The position numbers and the translations under genes are program-made. Shown piece by piece: positions 1,176 to 43,109 of a stretch of 64,000 nt of DNA. The stretch's first letter is position 1. The number at the start of each line of letters is the position of its first letter. Below the pieces are notes generated by a model that searched no databases, was not told where the DNA came from, and saw only the letters and a program-made list of their open reading frames with translations. Source of the DNA: Klebsiella phage FKP3; the sequence record PP895363.1. The stretch is one strand, 5' to 3'.

Positions 1176-3173
1176 TTAAATTTGGACAGCTTTTGTAGCT
1201 CCTGTCATAATAAATTTATAGGGTTTACCAGCACTCATTGAAATATTTGCTCCGGTTGTCGTGATTAGTAGACTACTATTATATACTAAGGTACTGCCAG
1301 AGACATTACTAATAATTGTAATTTCCTCCCCTACTAATCCATTTATTTGAGTTACAGATGTTGCTGAAGTTAAGAATATAACTCTACGCCCGTAAGAATC
1401 AATGACAGGATTACTGGTATTTTGATATATTTGACCATATTGTTGTACTGTATTATTTGCATCCCCTGAGACCAGCTTATAAATCACATCCCCTGCTGTT
1501 TGCGTAATTTTACCTACTGTTGAACCAGTACCTGCAAAGAATAGAACAGCTCCTGCTGATTTGGTTCCTGAGCCTACAATAATATGTAAAGATTCTATAT
1601 TACAAGAAGTACCAATATTTAGTAGTCCAGTACTACTAGTTACAACAGATCCAGAACTCGTATTATAAGTTGGTGAAACACGGACTTGACCTGAAAATTT
1701 AGTGTAATTATTTAATATAATAGAGTAATCTAAAGGTTCAGAACCATCTGTAACATGGCATCTATTAAAATAACATCCATTCAATTCCGCTTGACTATTC
1801 GTAGGAGAGACTCTACGATACCAGTGAACACCAGCTTGCGGGTATCCTGCATCATCAGCACCGCTAAACCAACTATGGTTCCATTTAGTAAATTGCCCAG
1901 CATCTTGTACAACATGCACGTTGGAAGCATTGTTACTAACGACCATACAACTGTTGAAATTAACTTTGGTGGCTTCTGGTTGTATCTTAATAACATTATG
2001 CGATGCGGCAGCTTGTCTATATGTTTCAATTTTACAAGACTGAAAAGAAACATGTTCACAAAAACCAACCTCCAGAGCATATGGAGAAAACTCAATATGC
2101 ATATGATTGATTTGCATATTATTAGTGTTATCTGTAGCGTTAGTGCCAATAAATACTGCTGGTGCTGACCCGGTCGGAGTAGAACAATATAAAAACCTAC
2201 AATTATTTATAAAACCATCCCAGACTTCATTAGCATACAAGGCTGTATTAAAGCCTCCTGCATATAATCCTTCGATACGGACATGAGTCCCAACAAAATT
2301 GATTGAATAACATACTCTAGCATCTCTATTGTCTGTAAAAGTATTATACCCCGTTGTACTAAAAAACTTCTGGGATGCACAGGCAATATTCTTTAAATTT
2401 AAACCTGATACCCGCGATGAAGCACTATCCGTGGTTGATGTTATTTTTATTAAAGGTTCTGTACTTAAACCATCATGGGTAAGCAAAAATGTGCCTGTGG
2501 TAGTAGAAGTACCGGGTGTACCTTCTAACTTAGGGTCTACCCCTTTGAATAAATAAAAAGAGCTGTAAATTATTCTTGGTGGAAGTTTAACTGTGCGTTG
2601 TCCTGCATTCCATGCTACAATTTGTTCTAATATATTTTTGTTTATAAGTGCTGCACTAGCAGCTTGTTCTGGAAAGCTAGAACCTGCGGAAGGATCTAAA
2701 CTAGGTATTCCTAGACCGTATTGTATTGCTTCTATACTTAATCCAACATCTAAGCACCAAGCTCCTGATATCCCGCTTGGGTCTGATAATGGTGCAATGA
2801 ATAATCTAGGATATGTAGAAACTAAAGAAGACATATTAGAGGCATCAAAGTACCACTCCCCAGCACCACCGTCATTTTCTGAGAAAGCTCCTTTTGTATA
2901 CGCTCGATCACCAGAAGATGCTTTTAGAGTAGCAAGATCTGCTATAGAGTTTACTTGAGGAATAAGCAAATCAGATAAAAGTTTATTGTAAGATGTCCCT
3001 ACTTTACTAGCCCCTGTCTCCGATAATAAGGCACCATCTGATATAAATTTATAATTTTCAGCTAAATCTAAAACTGTTATTTTCTTTGTGTTATCTGCTT
3101 GGTCTAAGATAAGTAGATCTGTATCTTCAATAGATGTTGCAGAAGGAAGACTTGCTATTTTAATTGTTGCCAT
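1176..3173 (-). CDS. tail fibre / tailspike-like protein
   Basis: 665 aa, Ser/Thr/Gly/Asn-rich with repetitive beta-rich composition typical of receptor-binding fibres; lies in the baseplate block. Confidence 0.45.
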   Translation of the reverse strand: MATIKIASLPSATSIEDTDLLILDQADNTKKITVLDLAENYKFISDGALLSETGASKVGTSYNKLLSDLLIPQVNSIADLATLKASSGDRAYTKGAFSENDGGAGEWYFDASNMSSLVSTYPRLFIAPLSDPSGISGAWCLDVGLSIEAIQYGLGIPSLDPSAGSSFPEQAASAALINKNILEQIVAWNAGQRTVKLPPRIIYSSFYLFKGVDPKLEGTPGTSTTTGTFLLTHDGLSTEPLIKITSTTDSASSRVSGLNLKNIACASQKFFSTTGYNTFTDNRDARVCYSINFVGTHVRIEGLYAGGFNTALYANEVWDGFINNCRFLYCSTPTGSAPAVFIGTNATDNTNNMQINHMHIEFSPYALEVGFCEHVSFQSCKIETYRQAAASHNVIKIQPEATKVNFNSCMVVSNNASNVHVVQDAGQFTKWNHSWFSGADDAGYPQAGVHWYRRVSPTNSQAELNGCYFNRCHVTDGSEPLDYSIILNNYTKFSGQVRVSPTYNTSSGSVVTSSTGLLNIGTSCNIESLHIIVGSGTKSAGAVLFFAGTGSTVGKITQTAGDVIYKLVSGDANNTVQQYGQIYQNTSNPVIDSYGRRVIFLTSATSVTQINGLVGEEITIISNVSGSTLVYNSSLLITTTGANISMSAGKPYKFIMTGATKAVQI

Positions 3174-3789
3174 CTATATTAGCCCTTAATGTCATGTTAA
3201 GTTGGGTAACTATCTCTTCCCCTAACTGTGTAATTAATAAATATTGTTCTAAAGATATAAAATTAGCCCACTCATTCCACCAGGTGGAATATGTTTGATC
3301 CGGCAACCCATCGATGTTTATAAACTTATATAATCGGTTTGCATCTGGTATAGTACCAAAGAACGAACATGTAATTCGTGCATCATCGTCACTAACTTCA
3401 GGATAGATATATTCTTCAGAAGGTTGTGTAGAGAAAACAGTTGTAACATTGTCTTCACCAACTGCAACGTTAGCTACCATAGTATAGTAACGTTCATCTC
3501 TATCAAAGCTAGAAGTGTAGCTATTAATATTATCTACAAATCTGTTATTAGCAATCTGAGATAAGAATATTCTATCTACTGTTTCTTTTTTCCTAGCCAC
3601 ACCTATAATCTCTTGAAGATAAGGTGTACCAAAATTGGTGTTTAGGAACCACTCCCCTTTAAACGTTTTAAGAGTAATTCCTAAAGTTTGTGCTGCCATT
3701 TCAGTACGGGTAGTTGTGAGGGTGAGATCACCCTCTGCAATAATCAAATCATTTGTACTGTCCAGCTTAAGGTCAAAAGATACGCCCAT
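3160..3789 (-). CDS. baseplate/tail structural protein
   Basis: 209 aa ORF within tail module, tightly packed with neighbours. Confidence 0.3.
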   Translation of the reverse strand: MGVSFDLKLDSTNDLIIAEGDLTLTTTRTEMAAQTLGITLKTFKGEWFLNTNFGTPYLQEIIGVARKKETVDRIFLSQIANNRFVDNINSYTSSFDRDERYYTMVANVAVGEDNVTTVFSTQPSEEYIYPEVSDDDARITCSFFGTIPDANRLYKFINIDGLPDQTYSTWWNEWANFISLEQYLLITQLGEEIVTQLNMTLRANIDGNN

Positions 3790-18869: not shown

Positions 18870-20033
18870 TTATCTTGATCTTATTTTATAAGGTTGACCA
18901 AAAGATGCCCTACTTCCACTAGACATTTTACCATATCCTGTGGTAGCTCCTAGTGGCGTAGGAATGGCTACAGCCTTGAATACAGCCTCTTTCATCAGTG
19001 TATTAAAACAAGATGCCGCAGCATCCGGGATATCGTCTTTGAGTGTTGCAGTAGACCTCTCTCCATTGAAAGATTCTAATTCTTTATAAAAGTGATCTAA
19101 AGTTTCTTTATTTGGGAAAGAGTCTTCAACAATATATACAAAACCATTTTGACAAGCACTACTAAAAGGCATAAAACGCTGTAGTTTCTTTTTGTTCCCT
19201 GGCATTGCATCAGGTTTTACAATGAAACCTTCAGAAATAAGCTTCTTAGCAGATTCTGTATATTCAATCAAACCTGCACCAGATGGGTCTTTAGGAAGAA
19301 CTACAATAACCTCATCTCCATCAATTTTACATTGATTAAGAATCAAATTATCTCGTTCACCCGGTAATCTTCTAAATCTACCAAAGATTTTACTTTTCTC
19401 ATCTACTGCATCGTAATCATAATCTCCGAAGATATAGACATTACCATCAGTATCTTTACCCATTTTGACAGACGTGGTATAGTCTGGATAACGATACGAT
19501 TCTGTCGGAACAGATACAGCTTTATCCCATGCTCGCATATACTTCATATTATTTGGCACATCTGAATATTTAATTACATGCAACCATTCTCTATTGAAGA
19601 AACTTTCTTCTTGTGCTCTTGCAAACCAACACCCATCTAAGAGCTGTGCTCTTTTCACTGCGGTTTGTGCTTTCAGAGAGGCTAGATATTTAGGATTAAG
19701 ACGTATAAGCTCTGGATTATCAAATATAGTTCCGCCGATAAATACAAAGCTCTGCGGTTCGATAGTAACTATTTCGCCTGTATTTGGGTTTTCCATGAAG
19801 CAGTTTTCAGGATACTTTTCCTTTAGTTCTTCTGGGTCTTCTGCAAATACCGGTTCATCATTTACAATAAGAAAATATAGTTGTTTACCACACATGTCGT
19901 CGCGTGGAAATCCTGCTTCATCTAGATAAGGTAATACCCAATTAATAACCCAACTATCTGCATCTGGGTTACAGGTGCATAGCATAAAAGATGTTGCAGA
20001 CTCAGAACGTAAACGACCAAGAAGGTAAAGCAT
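18870..20033 (-). CDS. terL: terminase large subunit, downstream exon (nuclease domain); true 5' boundary 20034-20078
   Basis: 387 aa ORF with ...SFMLCTCNPDADSWV... (ATPase motif III-like) and a C-terminal nuclease-sized domain. Same reading frame (mod 3) as the ATPase fragment 21390-22253. Frame is open upstream to 20078. Confidence 0.6.
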   Translation of the reverse strand: MLYLLGRLRSESATSFMLCTCNPDADSWVINWVLPYLDEAGFPRDDMCGKQLYFLIVNDEPVFAEDPEELKEKYPENCFMENPNTGEIVTIEPQSFVFIGGTIFDNPELIRLNPKYLASLKAQTAVKRAQLLDGCWFARAQEESFFNREWLHVIKYSDVPNNMKYMRAWDKAVSVPTESYRYPDYTTSVKMGKDTDGNVYIFGDYDYDAVDEKSKIFGRFRRLPGERDNLILNQCKIDGDEVIVVLPKDPSGAGLIEYTESAKKLISEGFIVKPDAMPGNKKKLQRFMPFSSACQNGFVYIVEDSFPNKETLDHFYKELESFNGERSTATLKDDIPDAAASCFNTLMKEAVFKAVAIPTPLGATTGYGKMSSGSRASFGQPYKIRSR

Positions 20034-21389
20034 TTCATATTGTGTGAAATGTGTCCTGGTGTTCGAGAAGGCACGTTACGACCTTCCCCGAGATTACTCT
20101 CTGCTGCATGTTTCCATGCAGAGCAGACTATATCATCATCCATTAGGATGCCTTGCGCTTCGCCTCACTTGAGGCTACTCTACTCACTTCCGTATTTCTA
20201 CGTGCTTTCGATAGTCGTTAAACTTTACACCACACAAACTAAAAATTATAATCCTTGGATACTTCTGTAAAAGTTTTCCTAGATTTTATTCCGTACACTC
20301 TCTGATAGTTTAGGTGTTCACTGCAATGCATCTTAACTATTGCACCACATTTAAAACCTTTCTCTAACATCTCGCATATCCATTTAACTGTCTCTACTGA
20401 TAAGGTAGCTGGTCGCGTCAGATTGAAAGTATAATCTTTCACTATGTCTGCAAATATAGCCTTCCTTTTAATATTTCGTACTGTGTGATAAGCTACACCA
20501 ACTGTTTCAGAAACATCTTTCGGACTCAAGCCCTCTTCTAAAAGCTCACAGATCGTTCTTACTTCATGTTCTGTCATATTAGTATTTGGACTATTTATAC
20601 CAGCAGCTTTTACATGTAAACCTGTGTCATAAGCATGTTGTACGTTCTGAGAACAACTTACCCATTCCAAATTACTAGGATGATAATTCATTTTATTTCC
20701 ATCCTTATGGTTTACTTGTTTGTACTCCTCTGGAGAAGGATTCTCTACAAAGATTTCAGCCACTATGACATGGAGAGATTTTGTAGTTCTGCGTCCTGTA
20801 TCAGTAGTCATTGCAACAGCAGGATAACCTCCTCTATTACAACGAATAGTTAATTTATTATTTAGTTTTGTACTAAAGATTTCATAATTATCAGTCATAT
20901 GATACTTAGAAAATCCTTTTATTTCATGCATTTTCACCTCCTGCTAACATTAGGAGTTTGCATGGTGTCTTAGCTTGGTATTGCCCTCGTCTCTACGTTA
21001 GGGGTTTCACCAAATTCACAAGGTTTTCGATACATGTTCCCATGTAAAGGCTCTAAAAATCAAAGCTCGTCGAAACCGACCATACTGTATTGTGTACCTT
21101 GCAGTACGTGTTGATTTACTTAGCATATAGGTAAATCGGAGGATTCCTCCTCACCCTTTATGTTACCATAAAGATCAGACCATATCATAACCCACGTCCT
21201 ATGGGTTGTTGGCGCTTGGAGATCGCTTGATCCCTACTCTACTTACAAGCTTTAGCATCTTGCGTCTTGCTTTCGATGGTCGTTGCACCTTACTCCGAAG
21301 AGTCTTGGCTCAGGATTGTCCTCACAATGAGGAGTTTCCCTGAATTCACCAACTTATTCAACATACATTACTGTATGAGGCCACCAAGT
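20034..21389 (-). mobile_element. putative group I intron carrying HNH homing endonuclease, interrupting terL
   Basis: 1356 nt separates the two terL halves. About 450 nt of ORF-free, structure-rich sequence precedes the HNH ORF. That sequence contains AAUCCUGAGCCAAG and UAACGUAGAGACGAGGG strings, which I recall as resembling group I core elements of the Anabaena tRNA-Leu intron. An RBS (GGAGGUG) precedes the HNH ATG. Confidence 0.5.
20239..20937 (-). CDS. HNH homing endonuclease (intron-encoded)
   Basis: 232 aa; ...VNHKDGNKMNYHPSNLEWVSCSQN... HNH motif, paralogous to ORF 32345-32920. Confidence 0.7.
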   Translation of the reverse strand: MKMHEIKGFSKYHMTDNYEIFSTKLNNKLTIRCNRGGYPAVAMTTDTGRRTTKSLHVIVAEIFVENPSPEEYKQVNHKDGNKMNYHPSNLEWVSCSQNVQHAYDTGLHVKAAGINSPNTNMTEHEVRTICELLEEGLSPKDVSETVGVAYHTVRNIKRKAIFADIVKDYTFNLTRPATLSVETVKWICEMLEKGFKCGAIVKMHCSEHLNYQRVYGIKSRKTFTEVSKDYNF

Positions 21390-22253
21390 TTAATGGTTAG
21401 TTTCCGCTGTTACGTTATCATTTTCTAAGTGGTCGAATTTTAATGTTCCACCTCCGGTAGCTCTGAACTCCATTTCCATAGCTTGTTCACGAACATGTGG
21501 CTGAAGTTTCAGATATAGCTTTTTAGCTTCTGTAAATAACCCACCAGGCTTACGTAGAGCTGTTGTATTTTTACGGAATAGGATTCCGCCAAACAGTGGG
21601 TCTTTGCAAGCATATTTTAAAGCTTTCAGCAGGAGTAGACGAGACTTGCCGCTATTCCCAGTAACGAAGATATGATCGCCACGTCTAAAGACAACATAAC
21701 TGCTTGGAGTTTCAAAACAATATTTTTTATCATCACTTGTCATTACCTCGTGTATTTTTAGATAAGTGTTAGTTTTACCTGAGATATTAAATGGTACTCT
21801 TTTACCGAAAGGATTTTCTACATACCCTCTAAGTGGTTCTCCTGCTTGCTGCAATGCAATAAGATCTCCAACTAAAATCTCAAAATGTTTTTTAGATTTT
21901 TTCTTTTTATAGAATACAAACCTGTGTTCCATACTAAGTTCTTGGAATAAACCCACACCATTTGTTATTCTATATAAGTTATCTTTTGTATCATACTCTA
22001 CAAAGTATGGACTAACTAACTCCAGTTTCCTGTTTCTTGGATTGTATTGATAAATATCTTCTCCCGAGTATTGATCAATTCTCTTCCATCCTGCTGGTGT
22101 TAAATACTCTGTCTCTGCTGTAACGCATCCCGCAGCACCCCCATAAATCATTACCTCTGGCATTAAATCCATTGCTAATGTTTGTTTACCCGGTTGAGCT
22201 TTTACTTCAATCTCAATATTTGCTAAGTTTGTCTTAACTGGTTTACGTGCCAA
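21390..22253 (-). CDS. terL: terminase large subunit, upstream exon (ATPase N-part) containing a mini-intein
   Basis: MIYGGAAG|C...intein...N|SGKSRLLLL: the flanks join to GGAAGSGKS, a perfect Walker A motif. Confidence 0.65.
   Translation of the reverse strand: MARKPVKTNLANIEIEVKAQPGKQTLAMDLMPEVMIYGGAAGCVTAETEYLTPAGWKRIDQYSGEDIYQYNPRNRKLELVSPYFVEYDTKDNLYRITNGVGLFQELSMEHRFVFYKKKKSKKHFEILVGDLIALQQAGEPLRGYVENPFGKRVPFNISGKTNTYLKIHEVMTSDDKKYCFETPSSYVVFRRGDHIFVTGNSGKSRLLLLKALKYACKDPLFGGILFRKNTTALRKPGGLFTEAKKLYLKLQPHVREQAMEMEFRATGGGTLKFDHLENDNVTAETNH
21654..22127 (-). mobile_element. mini-intein (158 aa) inserted in the terminase Walker A P-loop
   Basis: Starts with Cys (CVTAETEYLTPAGWKRI...), ends ...DHIFVTGN followed by Ser; no endonuclease domain; excision predicted to restore GAAGSGKS. 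Confidence 0.6.
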
Positions 22254-22261
22254 AGTTCCTC

Positions 22262-22591
22262 CTATTTAGAAATGATTCCGGCATCTTGCAACGTTTTTAT
22301 GTATGCTTGCAATGCCATCAGCTTTTGTCTATCCTTTTCCCATAAGGCATTGTTCTTTGTTTGATTATCTACAACCTCAGATCTAGAGACGCCTTTTGTA
22401 ATTTGAGTTTGTGTATACACTACAGGTGTTTCTGGAGATTCCAGGTTGCTCTGCTCAGGACTGGCTATTGCCTCTTTTGCAACAGCTTTGCACTCATCAA
22501 TGAGAACTGGTTGGGAATGATTTGTTGATGATGTGCAGCCCGTTATCATTAGGGGCAAAGCAAGACATGCTGCCAGTAGTAGTTTTTGCAT
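22262..22591 (-). CDS. o-spanin (Rz1-like outer-membrane lipoprotein)
   Basis: 109 aa, signal peptide MQKLLLAACLALPLMITGC with lipobox ITG|C; its start is embedded out of frame in the 3' end of ORF 22497-22937. Confidence 0.5.
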   Translation of the reverse strand: MQKLLLAACLALPLMITGCTSSTNHSQPVLIDECKAVAKEAIASPEQSNLESPETPVVYTQTQITKGVSRSEVVDNQTKNNALWEKDRQKLMALQAYIKTLQDAGIISK

Positions 22592-22937
22592 ATTCTTTAG
22601 CCTCTTGTTGGAGTTCAGTTTCTTTTTTCGATAACTTCTCTTTTAGAATTTCAGTATCATTTGAAAGCTTGGCTATTGTATTATTCAACTGAGATCTATC
22701 TGCATCCGCTTTAGCTTGTAATGTATCAAAGTCTTGTTTAGCTTTCGCTTGTTGAATTTGTTGTGTTTGTTGCTCTTTAGCAACCCCTGCATTATAACCG
22801 TCTTCATAAATACTGTTTTTAATATGTATTGCACCAAATACGATAACTAACAGGAGAATAACTCCTATTACAAGATACCTAATCGTCTTGTTGTTCTTTA
22901 TCGTATTCAGTAAAGATATTAGTAAGCTCATCTTCAT
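22497..22937 (-). CDS. i-spanin (Rz-like)
   Basis: 146 aa with an N-terminal TM helix (YLVIGVILLLVIVFGAI) then a long coiled-coil; overlaps the lipoprotein gene in the classic Rz/Rz1 arrangement. Confidence 0.5.
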   Translation of the reverse strand: MKMSLLISLLNTIKNNKTIRYLVIGVILLLVIVFGAIHIKNSIYEDGYNAGVAKEQQTQQIQQAKAKQDFDTLQAKADADRSQLNNTIAKLSNDTEILKEKLSKKETELQQEAKEYAKTTTGSMSCFAPNDNGLHIINKSFPTSSH

Positions 22938-24925: not shown

Positions 24926-25001
24926 TGGTGGAGCCGGAGAGAATCGAACTCTCAACAGGAAAGGTGCAAACCTCCCTCGCTACCTTAGTACATGCAACCC
25001 C
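24926..25001 (-). tRNA. tRNA-Ala (UGC)
   Basis: G3-U70 pair present, anticodon loop UUUGCAC, T-loop GAGUUCGAUUCUC. Confidence 0.5.
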
Positions 25002-28027: not shown

Positions 28028-28118
28028 GTGGCGGAAGATAACGGAGTCGAACCATCACCATATCGCTACAGCGGGCTGGTTTTCAAGACCAGTTGCGTAC
28101 CGCTACGCCCTATCTTCC
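28028..28118 (-). tRNA. tRNA-Ser (UGA), class II
   Basis: Acceptor GGAAGAU/AUCUUCC perfect, anticodon arm CUGGU-CUUGAAA-ACCAG, long variable arm, G73, CCA. Confidence 0.6.
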
Positions 28119-42812: not shown

Positions 42813-43109
42813 TTGGAGGAAACCGTGTTTGAACAAAATCAAATTTTCGAGAACGGATTAGTACAGGTTATTCAAAACCTCAAACGTGCAGGTATCGAAG
42901 ACATTACAACAGAAGTTGTTGGATTGCATAGTGGCAACAAACACATGAAGTTCCGTTTCCATACTGAAGCACAGTGGTTAGCTGATCCTGCTAATAAAGT
43001 AAATGAAGCTGTGTGCCTATTTGGTAAGACTTACAAGGGTGAGTACAAGATGCCTGACTATATCGTGACCTATGAGAAGGTACAGTATTTCGTTGTTGAA
43101 GTGAAATAA
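42813..43109 (+). CDS. hypothetical protein
   Basis: 98 aa ORF. Confidence 0.3.
   Translation: MEETVFEQNQIFENGLVQVIQNLKRAGIEDITTEVVGLHSGNKHMKFRFHTEAQWLADPANKVNEAVCLFGKTYKGEYKMPDYIVTYEKVQYFVVEVK

Follow-up and report, generated by a model that had tools for sequence, protein, structure and literature searches.

The gene for the large terminase subunit, terL, of the Klebsiella phage FKP3 is interrupted by two inserts that flank the codons of the Walker B motif. We analyzed it in a stretch of 64,000 nucleotides (nt) from the sequence record PP895363.1, which we call the window; terL and the features described within it lie on the minus strand. FKP3 was published under the accession PP895363 with 21 transfer RNAs (tRNAs) (PMC11663894). 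In the window we find a cluster of 21 matches to tRNA models, and the phage belongs to the Stephanstirmvirinae. Its terL region is 95-98% identical to those of the Klebsiella phages KP13-26, KP2025 and phi1_175008, with which FKP3 has been grouped in the proposed genus 'Sichuanvirus' (PMC11726925). The paper on FKP3 mentions neither an intron nor an HNH endonuclease nor an intein (PMC11663894), and a literature search found no paper linking introns with Stephanstirmvirinae.

An alignment (blastn) of the 3384-nt region with the uninterrupted 2085-nt terL of KP13-26 yields three matching pieces, at query positions 1-860, 1153-1188 (36 nt) and 2200-3384. Exon 1 (22253..21393) starts with TTG, contains a split P-loop, is collinear with nt 1-861 of KP13-26 terL and ends in ...AAC CAU. 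It is followed by intron 1 (21392..21102), a group I intron of 291 nt without an open reading frame (ORF), and then by a mini-exon of 39 nt (21101..21063), which encodes QGTQYSMVGFDEL, including Walker B (hhhhDE). The 36-nt piece of the alignment lies in this mini-exon and matches nt 862-897 of KP13-26 terL at 34 of 36 bases, with synonymous differences throughout; the mini-exon as a whole fits exactly in frame between its neighbors. Intron 2 (21062..20055), a group I intron of 1008 nt with an HNH homing-endonuclease ORF in its P6a loop, separates it from exon 3 (20054..18870). This last exon begins with ACA CAU (THFTQYEM...), matches nt 901-2085 of KP13-26 terL, and encodes the remainder of the ATPase domain together with the nuclease domain (Pfam Terminase_6N positions 119-213 and Terminase_6C).

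Joining the three exons in silico gives an ORF of 2085 nt (694 codons), the same length as KP13-26 terL. The joined protein is identical to TerL of KP13-26 in 692 of 694 residues, and 40 of the 42 nucleotide differences between the two genes are synonymous. Both junctions are unambiguous, since a slide by one base would change a conserved residue (NH|QG to NQ.., DEL|T to DEL|S). The Walker B Asp-Glu pair, encoded in the mini-exon, is present in every TerL we examined. This anatomy and the exact restoration of the ORF are direct observations, and our interpretation is that two independent, homologous group I introns of type IA, 39 nt apart, very probably flank the Walker B codons of terL.

An earlier sequence-only reading of the window had already noted that the exon-1 frame stops at a TAA, which we find at 21392..21390, and that the terL frame continues in the same phase 1356 nt away, with a Met at 20033. 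From this it had concluded that a single insert of 1356 nt occupies 20034..21389. The alignment with KP13-26 replaces this insert by three exon pieces and two ribozymes in tandem, and the 39-nt exon lies within the ~450 nt that had been described as free of ORFs. The true outer ends of the interruption are 21392 and 20055, so that the earlier limits were 3 nt short on the 5' side and 21 nt long on the 3' side: the first base of intron 1 is the U of the exon-1-frame TAA, and the 21 nt of 20054..20034 (THFTQYE), previously counted with the element, are exon. The nuclease frame, said to be open from 20078, opens at 20075, with a TAA at 20078..20076. Nor do the inserts separate an ATPase part from a nuclease part; the gene is broken within the ATPase domain, before and after Walker B, as the match of exon 3 to Terminase_6N 119-213 shows.

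The two ribozymes and the endonuclease gene

Intron 1 matches the Rfam family Intron_gpI (RF00028) at 21403..21156(-) over the full model (1-253) with 87.2 bits (E=7.4e-21; gathering score 50), which bears out the earlier call of a group I intron. Its P1 pairs CCAUUA (21396-21391) with UGGUGG (21386-21381), essentially as had been proposed, and has U21393·G21384 as the splice-site pair. P10 forms between CUUG (21388-21385) and CAAG (21101-21098, the first four bases of the mini-exon) with 4/4 pairs, and the terminal base of the intron is G21102. P2, P3, P4, P5, P6/P6a (with a UUCG loop), P7, P8 and P9 are all perfectly paired, including the two helices of the P3/P7 pseudoknot, P3 (21353-21347/21214-21208) and P7 (21281-21276/21183-21178). 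Two extra hairpins, P7.1 and P7.2, lie between the 5' strand of P7 and the 3' strand of P3, exactly where the Rfam alignment has a 60-nt insert, and another two, P9.1 and P9.2, follow P9.

In intron 2, P1 (21066-21060/21056-21050) has U21063·G21053 as its splice-site pair, which is kept in 7/7 sequences (the window and the orthologues described below), and the terminal base is G20055. Besides P3 (21023-21017/20157-20151) and P7 (20216-20211/20131-20126), we could draw P2, P4, P5/P5a, P6, P7.1, P7.2, P8, P9, P9.1 and P9.2. The HNH ORF is enclosed by the P6a stem (20968-20956/20239-20227) and not, as had been expected, looped out of P8/P9. The sequence-only reading was right that the HNH gene is borne by an intron; this is intron 2, however, while the intron detected by Rfam, intron 1, has no ORF. 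Similarly, the two strings that it likened to an Anabaena intron are both present, AAUCCUGAGCCAAG at 21317..21304 and UAACGUAGAGACGAGGG at 21000..20984, but they belong to two different introns.

When placed in the helix columns P1-P9 of intron 2 (alignment A1), intron 1 forms 51 of 51 pairs, 19 of which are changed on both sides. Its core is 63% identical to that of intron 2, similar to the 62-72% identity between the intron 2 of the window and its orthologues. On the strength of the 63% core identity and the 51 shared pairs, the two inserts are homologous ribozymes of one lineage. Judging by their anatomy, that is, by the drawn hairpins P7.1/P7.2 and P9.1/P9.2, both would belong to subgroup IA (IA2-like), whose layout is typical of introns in phages. 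Pieces of their cores resemble introns in the DNA polymerase genes of SPO1 and of Aeromonas phages, the annotated psbA intron of S-CBWM1, and introns of KIL1 terL and PVP-SE1. Intron 1 shares a core piece of 51 nt with the SPO1 DNA polymerase intron at 86% identity. Intron 2 matches the helicase-primase intron of PVP-SE1 at its two ends, with 92% identity over two pieces that make up 13% of intron 2. The best DNA match to intron 1 is the terL intron of KIL1, which we rejected as an orthologue because its site is different (FIAANV|..., equivalent to FIGGTI|FDN).

We located the contigs that encode homologues of the HNH protein (38-47% identical); all six homologues lie within terL introns at exactly the site of intron 2, FDEL|THF. 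The six orthologous introns are those of Shewanella phage 1/40 (L007; S140_93-95) and of the uncultured-phage contigs L005, L006, L008, L009 and L011, and the sequence around the site follows the pattern ...GAY GAG CUU | U(G/A)A..AGAGCC ... G | ACN CAY UU... In the window and in 6/6 orthologues a P6a stem encloses the ORF and leaves the ribozyme core intact. An automatic search found this stem, 13-16 base pairs (bp) long and unrelated in sequence, in 5/7 introns; in L009 and L007 it was identified manually, and in L007 it is interrupted.

For a comparative test of the structure, we aligned the seven sequences with MAFFT after replacing the ORF loop by GAAA (alignment A2), and scored the helices as drawn on the window sequence. 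Of 511 cells, 90.8% are paired, compared with 31-49% when the partners are slid by 1-3 columns, a difference that is inflated because the structure was derived from the window sequence. Changes on both sides are seen in 35/75 pairs, and 0/500 shuffles reach any of the five measures. Five helices (P2, P3, P4, P8 and P9) are paired in 100% of their cells and show compensatory changes, P7 does not vary, and P7.2 covaries, with 70% of its cells paired. The RNA family membership of the inserts and the presence of orthologues at the same site can likewise be observed directly.

The HNH ORF (20931..20239) encodes 230 residues and a stop codon. The open frame around it comprises 232 codons (20937..20239), in which we took the ATG at 20931 as the start. 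Its product is 100% identical to the HNH protein annotated in Klebsiella phage FKP3; it is otherwise diverged, with 47% identity to the next closest relative, and exact-sequence look-ups of the protein with either start codon found no entry. It matches Pfam HNH_3 (30.3 bits, cutoff 24.8) and phrog_59 (HNH endonuclease, E=2.5e-38), and its best relative of solved structure is I-HmuI (PDB 1U3E, E=5.3e-8, residues 3-107). The C-terminal half contains two repeats resembling helix-turn-helix motifs (weak matches). Membership of this protein in the family of I-HmuI-like HNH endonucleases is again directly established.

The ORF has its own ribosome-binding site, as noted before, with the Shine-Dalgarno sequence AGGAGG at 20943-20938, which can pair with CUCCU at 20956-20952. 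In the window this CUCCU/AGGAG hairpin is possible (-5.4 kcal/mol), although the minimum-energy fold differs. In five orthologues the minimum-energy fold itself pairs the Shine-Dalgarno sequence with an upstream CUCC, and in L005-L009 the pairing persists through sequence change (CUCC/GGAG versus UCUC/GAGA). This conservation suggests that translation of the intron endonuclease may be restrained by Shine-Dalgarno pairing. In T4, such sequestration is a known restraint on the translation of intron ORFs.

A candidate for a third intron at 43064(-), found through the motif GATATAGTC, was rejected. It lies inside an ORF on the plus strand, a low-threshold Rfam scan of the whole window gave no further intron signal, and we attribute the motif to chance.

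Distribution and other inserts in terL

Uninterrupted by introns, terL occurs in KP13-26, in KP2025, in both records of phi1_175008 and in five Stephanstirmvirinae contigs in IMG/VR. Among 149 matched records, none covers even 80% of the terL region. A scan of IMG/VR with AAYCAYTAAACTTGGTGG, the pattern of the junction between exon 1 and intron 1, gave 14 matches, all of them by chance in unrelated coding DNA. For intron 2, the loose pattern GAGCTTTRAN{2,6}AGAGCCT had no terL among the 80 matches listed, and a stricter pattern, applied to IMG/VR and the metagenomes of the Joint Genome Institute (JGI), found a locus of the L011 type alone, without intron 1.

Elsewhere, terL introns around Walker B are found at GF|DE (phiA009, L013) and at VD|EG (phiTE, L016). 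Together with NH|QG and DEL|THF, this makes four distinct intron sites within ~50 bp, and the Walker B region of terL is, by all appearances, an intron hot spot across unrelated phages.

Further interruptions of terL came to light in the same comparisons. In Escherichia phage PD114 (MH675927, Justusliebigvirus; L002 2239-3246), an insert of ~1 kb with an HNH ORF of 226 residues interrupts terL at FIGGTI|FDN. The gene is annotated as three hypothetical proteins, and Rfam at the gathering threshold misses the insert, whose site is that of the annotated introns of Pseudomonas phage KIL1 and Vibrio phage 11895-B1. In KIL1, where terL is annotated as a joined coding sequence (CDS), a second Rfam Intron_gpI match (L003 3366-3588, 68.9 bits) overlaps the 3' end of the annotated terL, with an HNH gene downstream; what is annotated as the end of this terL may be an exon truncated by an intron. 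In Shewanella phage 1/40 and in L009, terL is interrupted again further downstream of the FDEL|THF intron, in L009 by an insertion with another HNH gene. In view of these second insertions, terL genes with multiple introns seem to be common in environmental phages.

The split P-loop of exon 1 is due to an intein-like insert of 158 residues (22127..21654), C43..N200 followed by S201, inside Walker A (GGAAG|C...GN|SGKS). It is common to KP13-26 and PD114 and absent from TerL of L005 and L006, which have GGAAGSGKS. Its ends fit an intein, with a Cys at position 1, a C-terminal Asn, a Ser as nucleophile at +1, and a conserved host motif as the point of interruption. The match to Pfam Intein_splicing (15.1 bits, E=0.021) is below the cutoff of 35.8, a sequence search against PDB gave no match, and a homologue search returned only 5 near-identical fragments. 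An AlphaFold2 model of the insert is all-β with a predicted local distance difference test score of 51, a confidence too low for a meaningful fold search, and Foldseek found nothing with E<0.1 in PDB. The terminal residues thus fit a mini-intein, an identity that could not be confirmed. The PHROG of PhoH-like ATPases matches the first 91 residues of the insert, a hint that another P-loop protein may contain a related insert. The sequence-only reading had seen an unusual nesting of an intein and an intron in one gene. This was overstated: the P-loop insert lies ~260 nt upstream of intron 1 and is not nested with the introns. Also, terL genes with several introns are documented (PMC11878797). 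Taken together, selfish elements gather on the two catalytic ATPase motifs of TerL, Walker A with its intein-like insert and Walker B with four or more intron sites.

Two other features of the window lie outside terL. Directly upstream of the gene, at 22262-22937 (-), two small overlapping ORFs, one with a lipoprotein signal (MQKLLLAACLALPLMITGC...) and one with transmembrane and coiled-coil segments, look like a spanin pair; at the equivalent position of phiTE, Rz-like spanins are annotated. The tRNA cluster also contains a locus that matches the model of transfer-messenger RNA weakly and in part (24926-25001, minus strand; 24.4 bits) and another with a sub-threshold match to tRNA-Sec (28033-28118, minus strand; 39.7 bits, or 29.7 as plain tRNA). 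The first is probably a tRNA-like element, the second a tRNA with a long arm.

Splicing, mobility and alternative explanations

We propose that each of the two terL ribozymes would fold after transcription and bind guanosine. Cleavage would occur after the U of the P1 U·G pair, at U21393 in intron 1 and U21063 in intron 2, and exon ligation at the terminal G, G21102 and G20055, would produce a messenger RNA (mRNA) with 694 terL codons. The predicted spliced junctions are CAU|CAAGG and GCUU|ACACA, and the continuous TerL peptide would span NHQGTQYSMVGFDELTHF. By established group I chemistry, each intron would splice independently. The guide sequences of the two introns differ, CUUG-GUGG in intron 1, forming P1 and P10 with the two flanking exons, and UUAGAGC in intron 2; for this reason, the two reactions should stay separate and the mini-exon should be kept in the mRNA. 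As terL is essential and FKP3 is a viable lytic phage (PMC11663894), the gene must be expressed. Further, translation signals are lacking in the mini-exon, as is a Shine-Dalgarno sequence in exon 3, including before its in-frame ATG at 20033, so that splicing would have to occur.

Intron 2 would be mobile. In a mixed infection, its I-HmuI-like HNH enzyme would nick or cut an intron-less terL near FDEL|THF, and repair would copy the intron, along with flanking exon sequence, into the intron-less allele. We base this expected targeting and copying-in on analogy with I-HmuI and the introns of T4. Intron 1, which has no enzyme and lies 39 bp away, would spread, if at all, probably by co-conversion with intron 2. 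The differences from KP13-26 are not evenly distributed: the spliced ORF has 8/42 of them in nt 861-912, a block of 52 nt that includes both junctions, and all of these are synonymous (scan-permutation P=0.0013). At the last exon bases, KP13-26 has CAC|CAG and TTA|ACG where the window has CAU| and CUU|, and these C>U and A>U changes supply the U residues needed by the splice-site U·G pairs. The synonymous cluster looks like a co-conversion footprint and fits one event or two successive events.

It is possible, though we regard it as somewhat doubtful, that the two introns form a composite mobile unit, in which the intron 2 enzyme breaks intron-less terL next to FDEL|THF and the repair tract regularly reaches 40 bp or more upstream, taking with it intron 1, which would be maintained by the endonuclease of its neighbor. 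The 52-nt synonymous block would then be the footprint of a single event, and occasional skipping of the mini-exon could give an ATPase-dead TerL.

Several points weigh against two independent introns. At the gathering score of 50, intron 2 does not have a single Rfam match. Scanned at low threshold, 19980..21130 gives two collinear matches, one of 25.7 bits at the 5' end (P1-P6) and one of 36.4 bits at the 3' end (P8-P7'-P9); the intron stays below the threshold because the 716-nt P6a loop that holds the ORF splits the match in two. In alignment A2, the window sequence from which the structure was derived is one of the seven aligned, and P9.2 is only 45.7% paired. We attribute this low score to a one-column shift in the MAFFT alignment, as, by eye, a 5-bp hairpin can be drawn there for both the window and L005. 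Pattern scans of IMG/VR and the JGI metagenomes, and the Stephanstirmvirinae contigs, yielded neither an orthologue of intron 1 at NH|QG nor a second tandem genome, which makes the mobility of intron 1 a conjecture. Finally, splicing itself, the activity and target of the endonuclease, and the co-mobility of the introns are what we infer from related systems.

The single above-threshold Rfam match could be taken to mean that there is only one group I intron of ~1.3 kb, reaching from 21392 to ~20034-20055, with the HNH ORF in a peripheral loop and the QGTQYSMVGFDEL stretch as a meaningless relic. Its outer ends, with a U before the 5' end and a G at 20055, would also follow group I rules, and the outer exons would be in phase, because 39 nt is a multiple of three. 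We nevertheless consider this highly improbable. The region contains two complete sets of P1-P9, and the supposed relic matches the codons of KP13-26 at 34/36 aligned bases with exclusively synonymous differences and encodes the Walker B Asp-Glu kept in every TerL examined. Further, the orthologous intron in L005-L011 starts directly after FDEL with no intron upstream, and the guide of intron 1 pairs with the CAAG of the mini-exon (P10), not with the ACAC of exon 3. We give equally little credence to a split gene without splicing, in which a free-standing HNH gene would divide terL and the TerL fragments, as in some T4-family pairs, would be translated as separate polypeptides that assemble. 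In the annotations of relatives, terL is indeed divided into two or three CDSs (Shewanella phage 1/40, phiTE, phiA009, PD114), and exon 3 offers an in-frame ATG at 20033; yet no Shine-Dalgarno sequence precedes this ATG, the 13 codons of the mini-exon lack a translation start, and without the mini-exon no fragment would carry Walker B. Moreover, both inserts are recognizable ribozymes with covariation support, and their removal restores the ORF to the nucleotide.

A different view of the same two introns is that they act as one RNA unit, such that many transcripts skip the 39-nt exon and encode an in-frame TerL without Walker B, with a regulatory or dominant-negative role. Skipping is documented for exons of 23 nt and 34 nt between group I introns (PMC10136302) and for a phage terL, that of SIOphi (PMC11878797); here, the two cores are homologous with 63% identity and the length of the mini-exon is divisible by three. 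This identity is, however, far below that of the 'highly similar' Twort pair, and the guide sequences are different and each specific for its site: the end of exon 1, ACCAU, cannot pair with GAGC of intron 2, and the start of exon 3, ACAC, cannot make the P10 of intron 1. Frequent skipping therefore appears unlikely to us, and we favor two introns that would be removed separately, with the mini-exon retained.

Comparison with known systems

None of the findings on terL alters current concepts. What is new here is the host clade, the insertion site NH|QG and the family at FDEL|THF; tandem introns with short exons were already known. In practical terms, terL of FKP3, a candidate for phage therapy, should be annotated as one joined CDS of 694 codons with two introns, not in pieces beside a stray HNH gene; this matters because terL is a standard marker for taxonomy, for the prediction of the packaging mode and for genome orientation. 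A covariance-model scan alone detects only the ORF-less intron; ORF-bearing introns, here as in PD114, fall below the threshold, and comparison with intron-less alleles is therefore needed to see them. FKP3 and KP13-26 constitute a natural pair with and without the introns at 98% identity, suited to measuring homing, co-conversion, and exon inclusion or skipping.

Intron 2 belongs with the introns of the FDEL|THF family, which share its site, its P1 (GCUU|U..AGAGC), the location of the ORF in the P6a loop and an orthologous HNH protein (38-47% identical). In contrast to FKP3, the six genomes of this family have neither intron 1 nor the P-loop insert. Public records describe members of the family only as a split terL with an HNH gene.

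The tandem arrangement has a counterpart in orf142 of Staphylococcus phage Twort, whose introns 2 and 3 are group I introns of type IA2 with a 23-nt exon between them that is subject to exon skipping (Landthaler & Shub 1999, as summarized in PMC10136302); in Coxiella 23S rRNA, a 34-nt exon lies between group I introns (PMC10136302). Like Twort, FKP3 has two introns, IA2-like by their anatomy, separated by a very short exon (23 nt in Twort, 39 nt in FKP3) in one structural gene. The Twort introns are nearly identical, however, whereas the cores in terL are 63% identical, have different guides, and one of the introns carries an HNH gene; also, splicing in FKP3 is a prediction. In the Bastillevirinae, there are terL genes that contain two or three group I introns, with small internal exons, exon skipping, and HNH or other homing endonucleases, and splicing was shown in vitro and in vivo (PMC11878797). 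Those terL introns and the DNA polymerase introns of the same clade differ from ours in their setting, Herelleviridae of Bacillus as opposed to a Stephanstirmvirinae phage of Klebsiella.

With respect to the endonuclease, the intron in the SPO1 DNA polymerase gene encodes I-HmuI, a homologous HNH protein that likewise has C-terminal helix-turn-helix DNA-binding modules. Host gene and target are different, and nicking, which is known for I-HmuI, is assumed for the terL enzyme. The intron in gp13, the helicase-primase gene of Salmonella phage PVP-SE1, resembles intron 2 in its ends (92% identical) and in the I-HmuI-like HNH gene gp14 inside it, and its gene is annotated as a joined CDS; the intron differs in its host gene and guide sequence, and in that its HNH ORF extends into the 3' core. 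The td intron of T4 has a subgroup-IA layout, with an endonuclease ORF looped from P6a and a ribosome-binding site that can be sequestered in a hairpin. It parallels the terL introns in P7.1/P7.2 and P9.1/P9.2 as well as in these two properties, but its enzyme, I-TevI, is of the GIY-YIG type, not HNH, and its host gene is another.

For intron 1, the relevant comparison is collaborative homing, reportedly described by Zeng, Bonocora and Shub in 2009 for an ORF-less cyanophage psbA intron and the free-standing endonuclease F-CphI. By analogy, the enzyme-less intron of terL could rely on an endonuclease encoded nearby and cutting near its insertion site; unlike F-CphI, this helper would be the product of a second intron at a distance of 39 bp.

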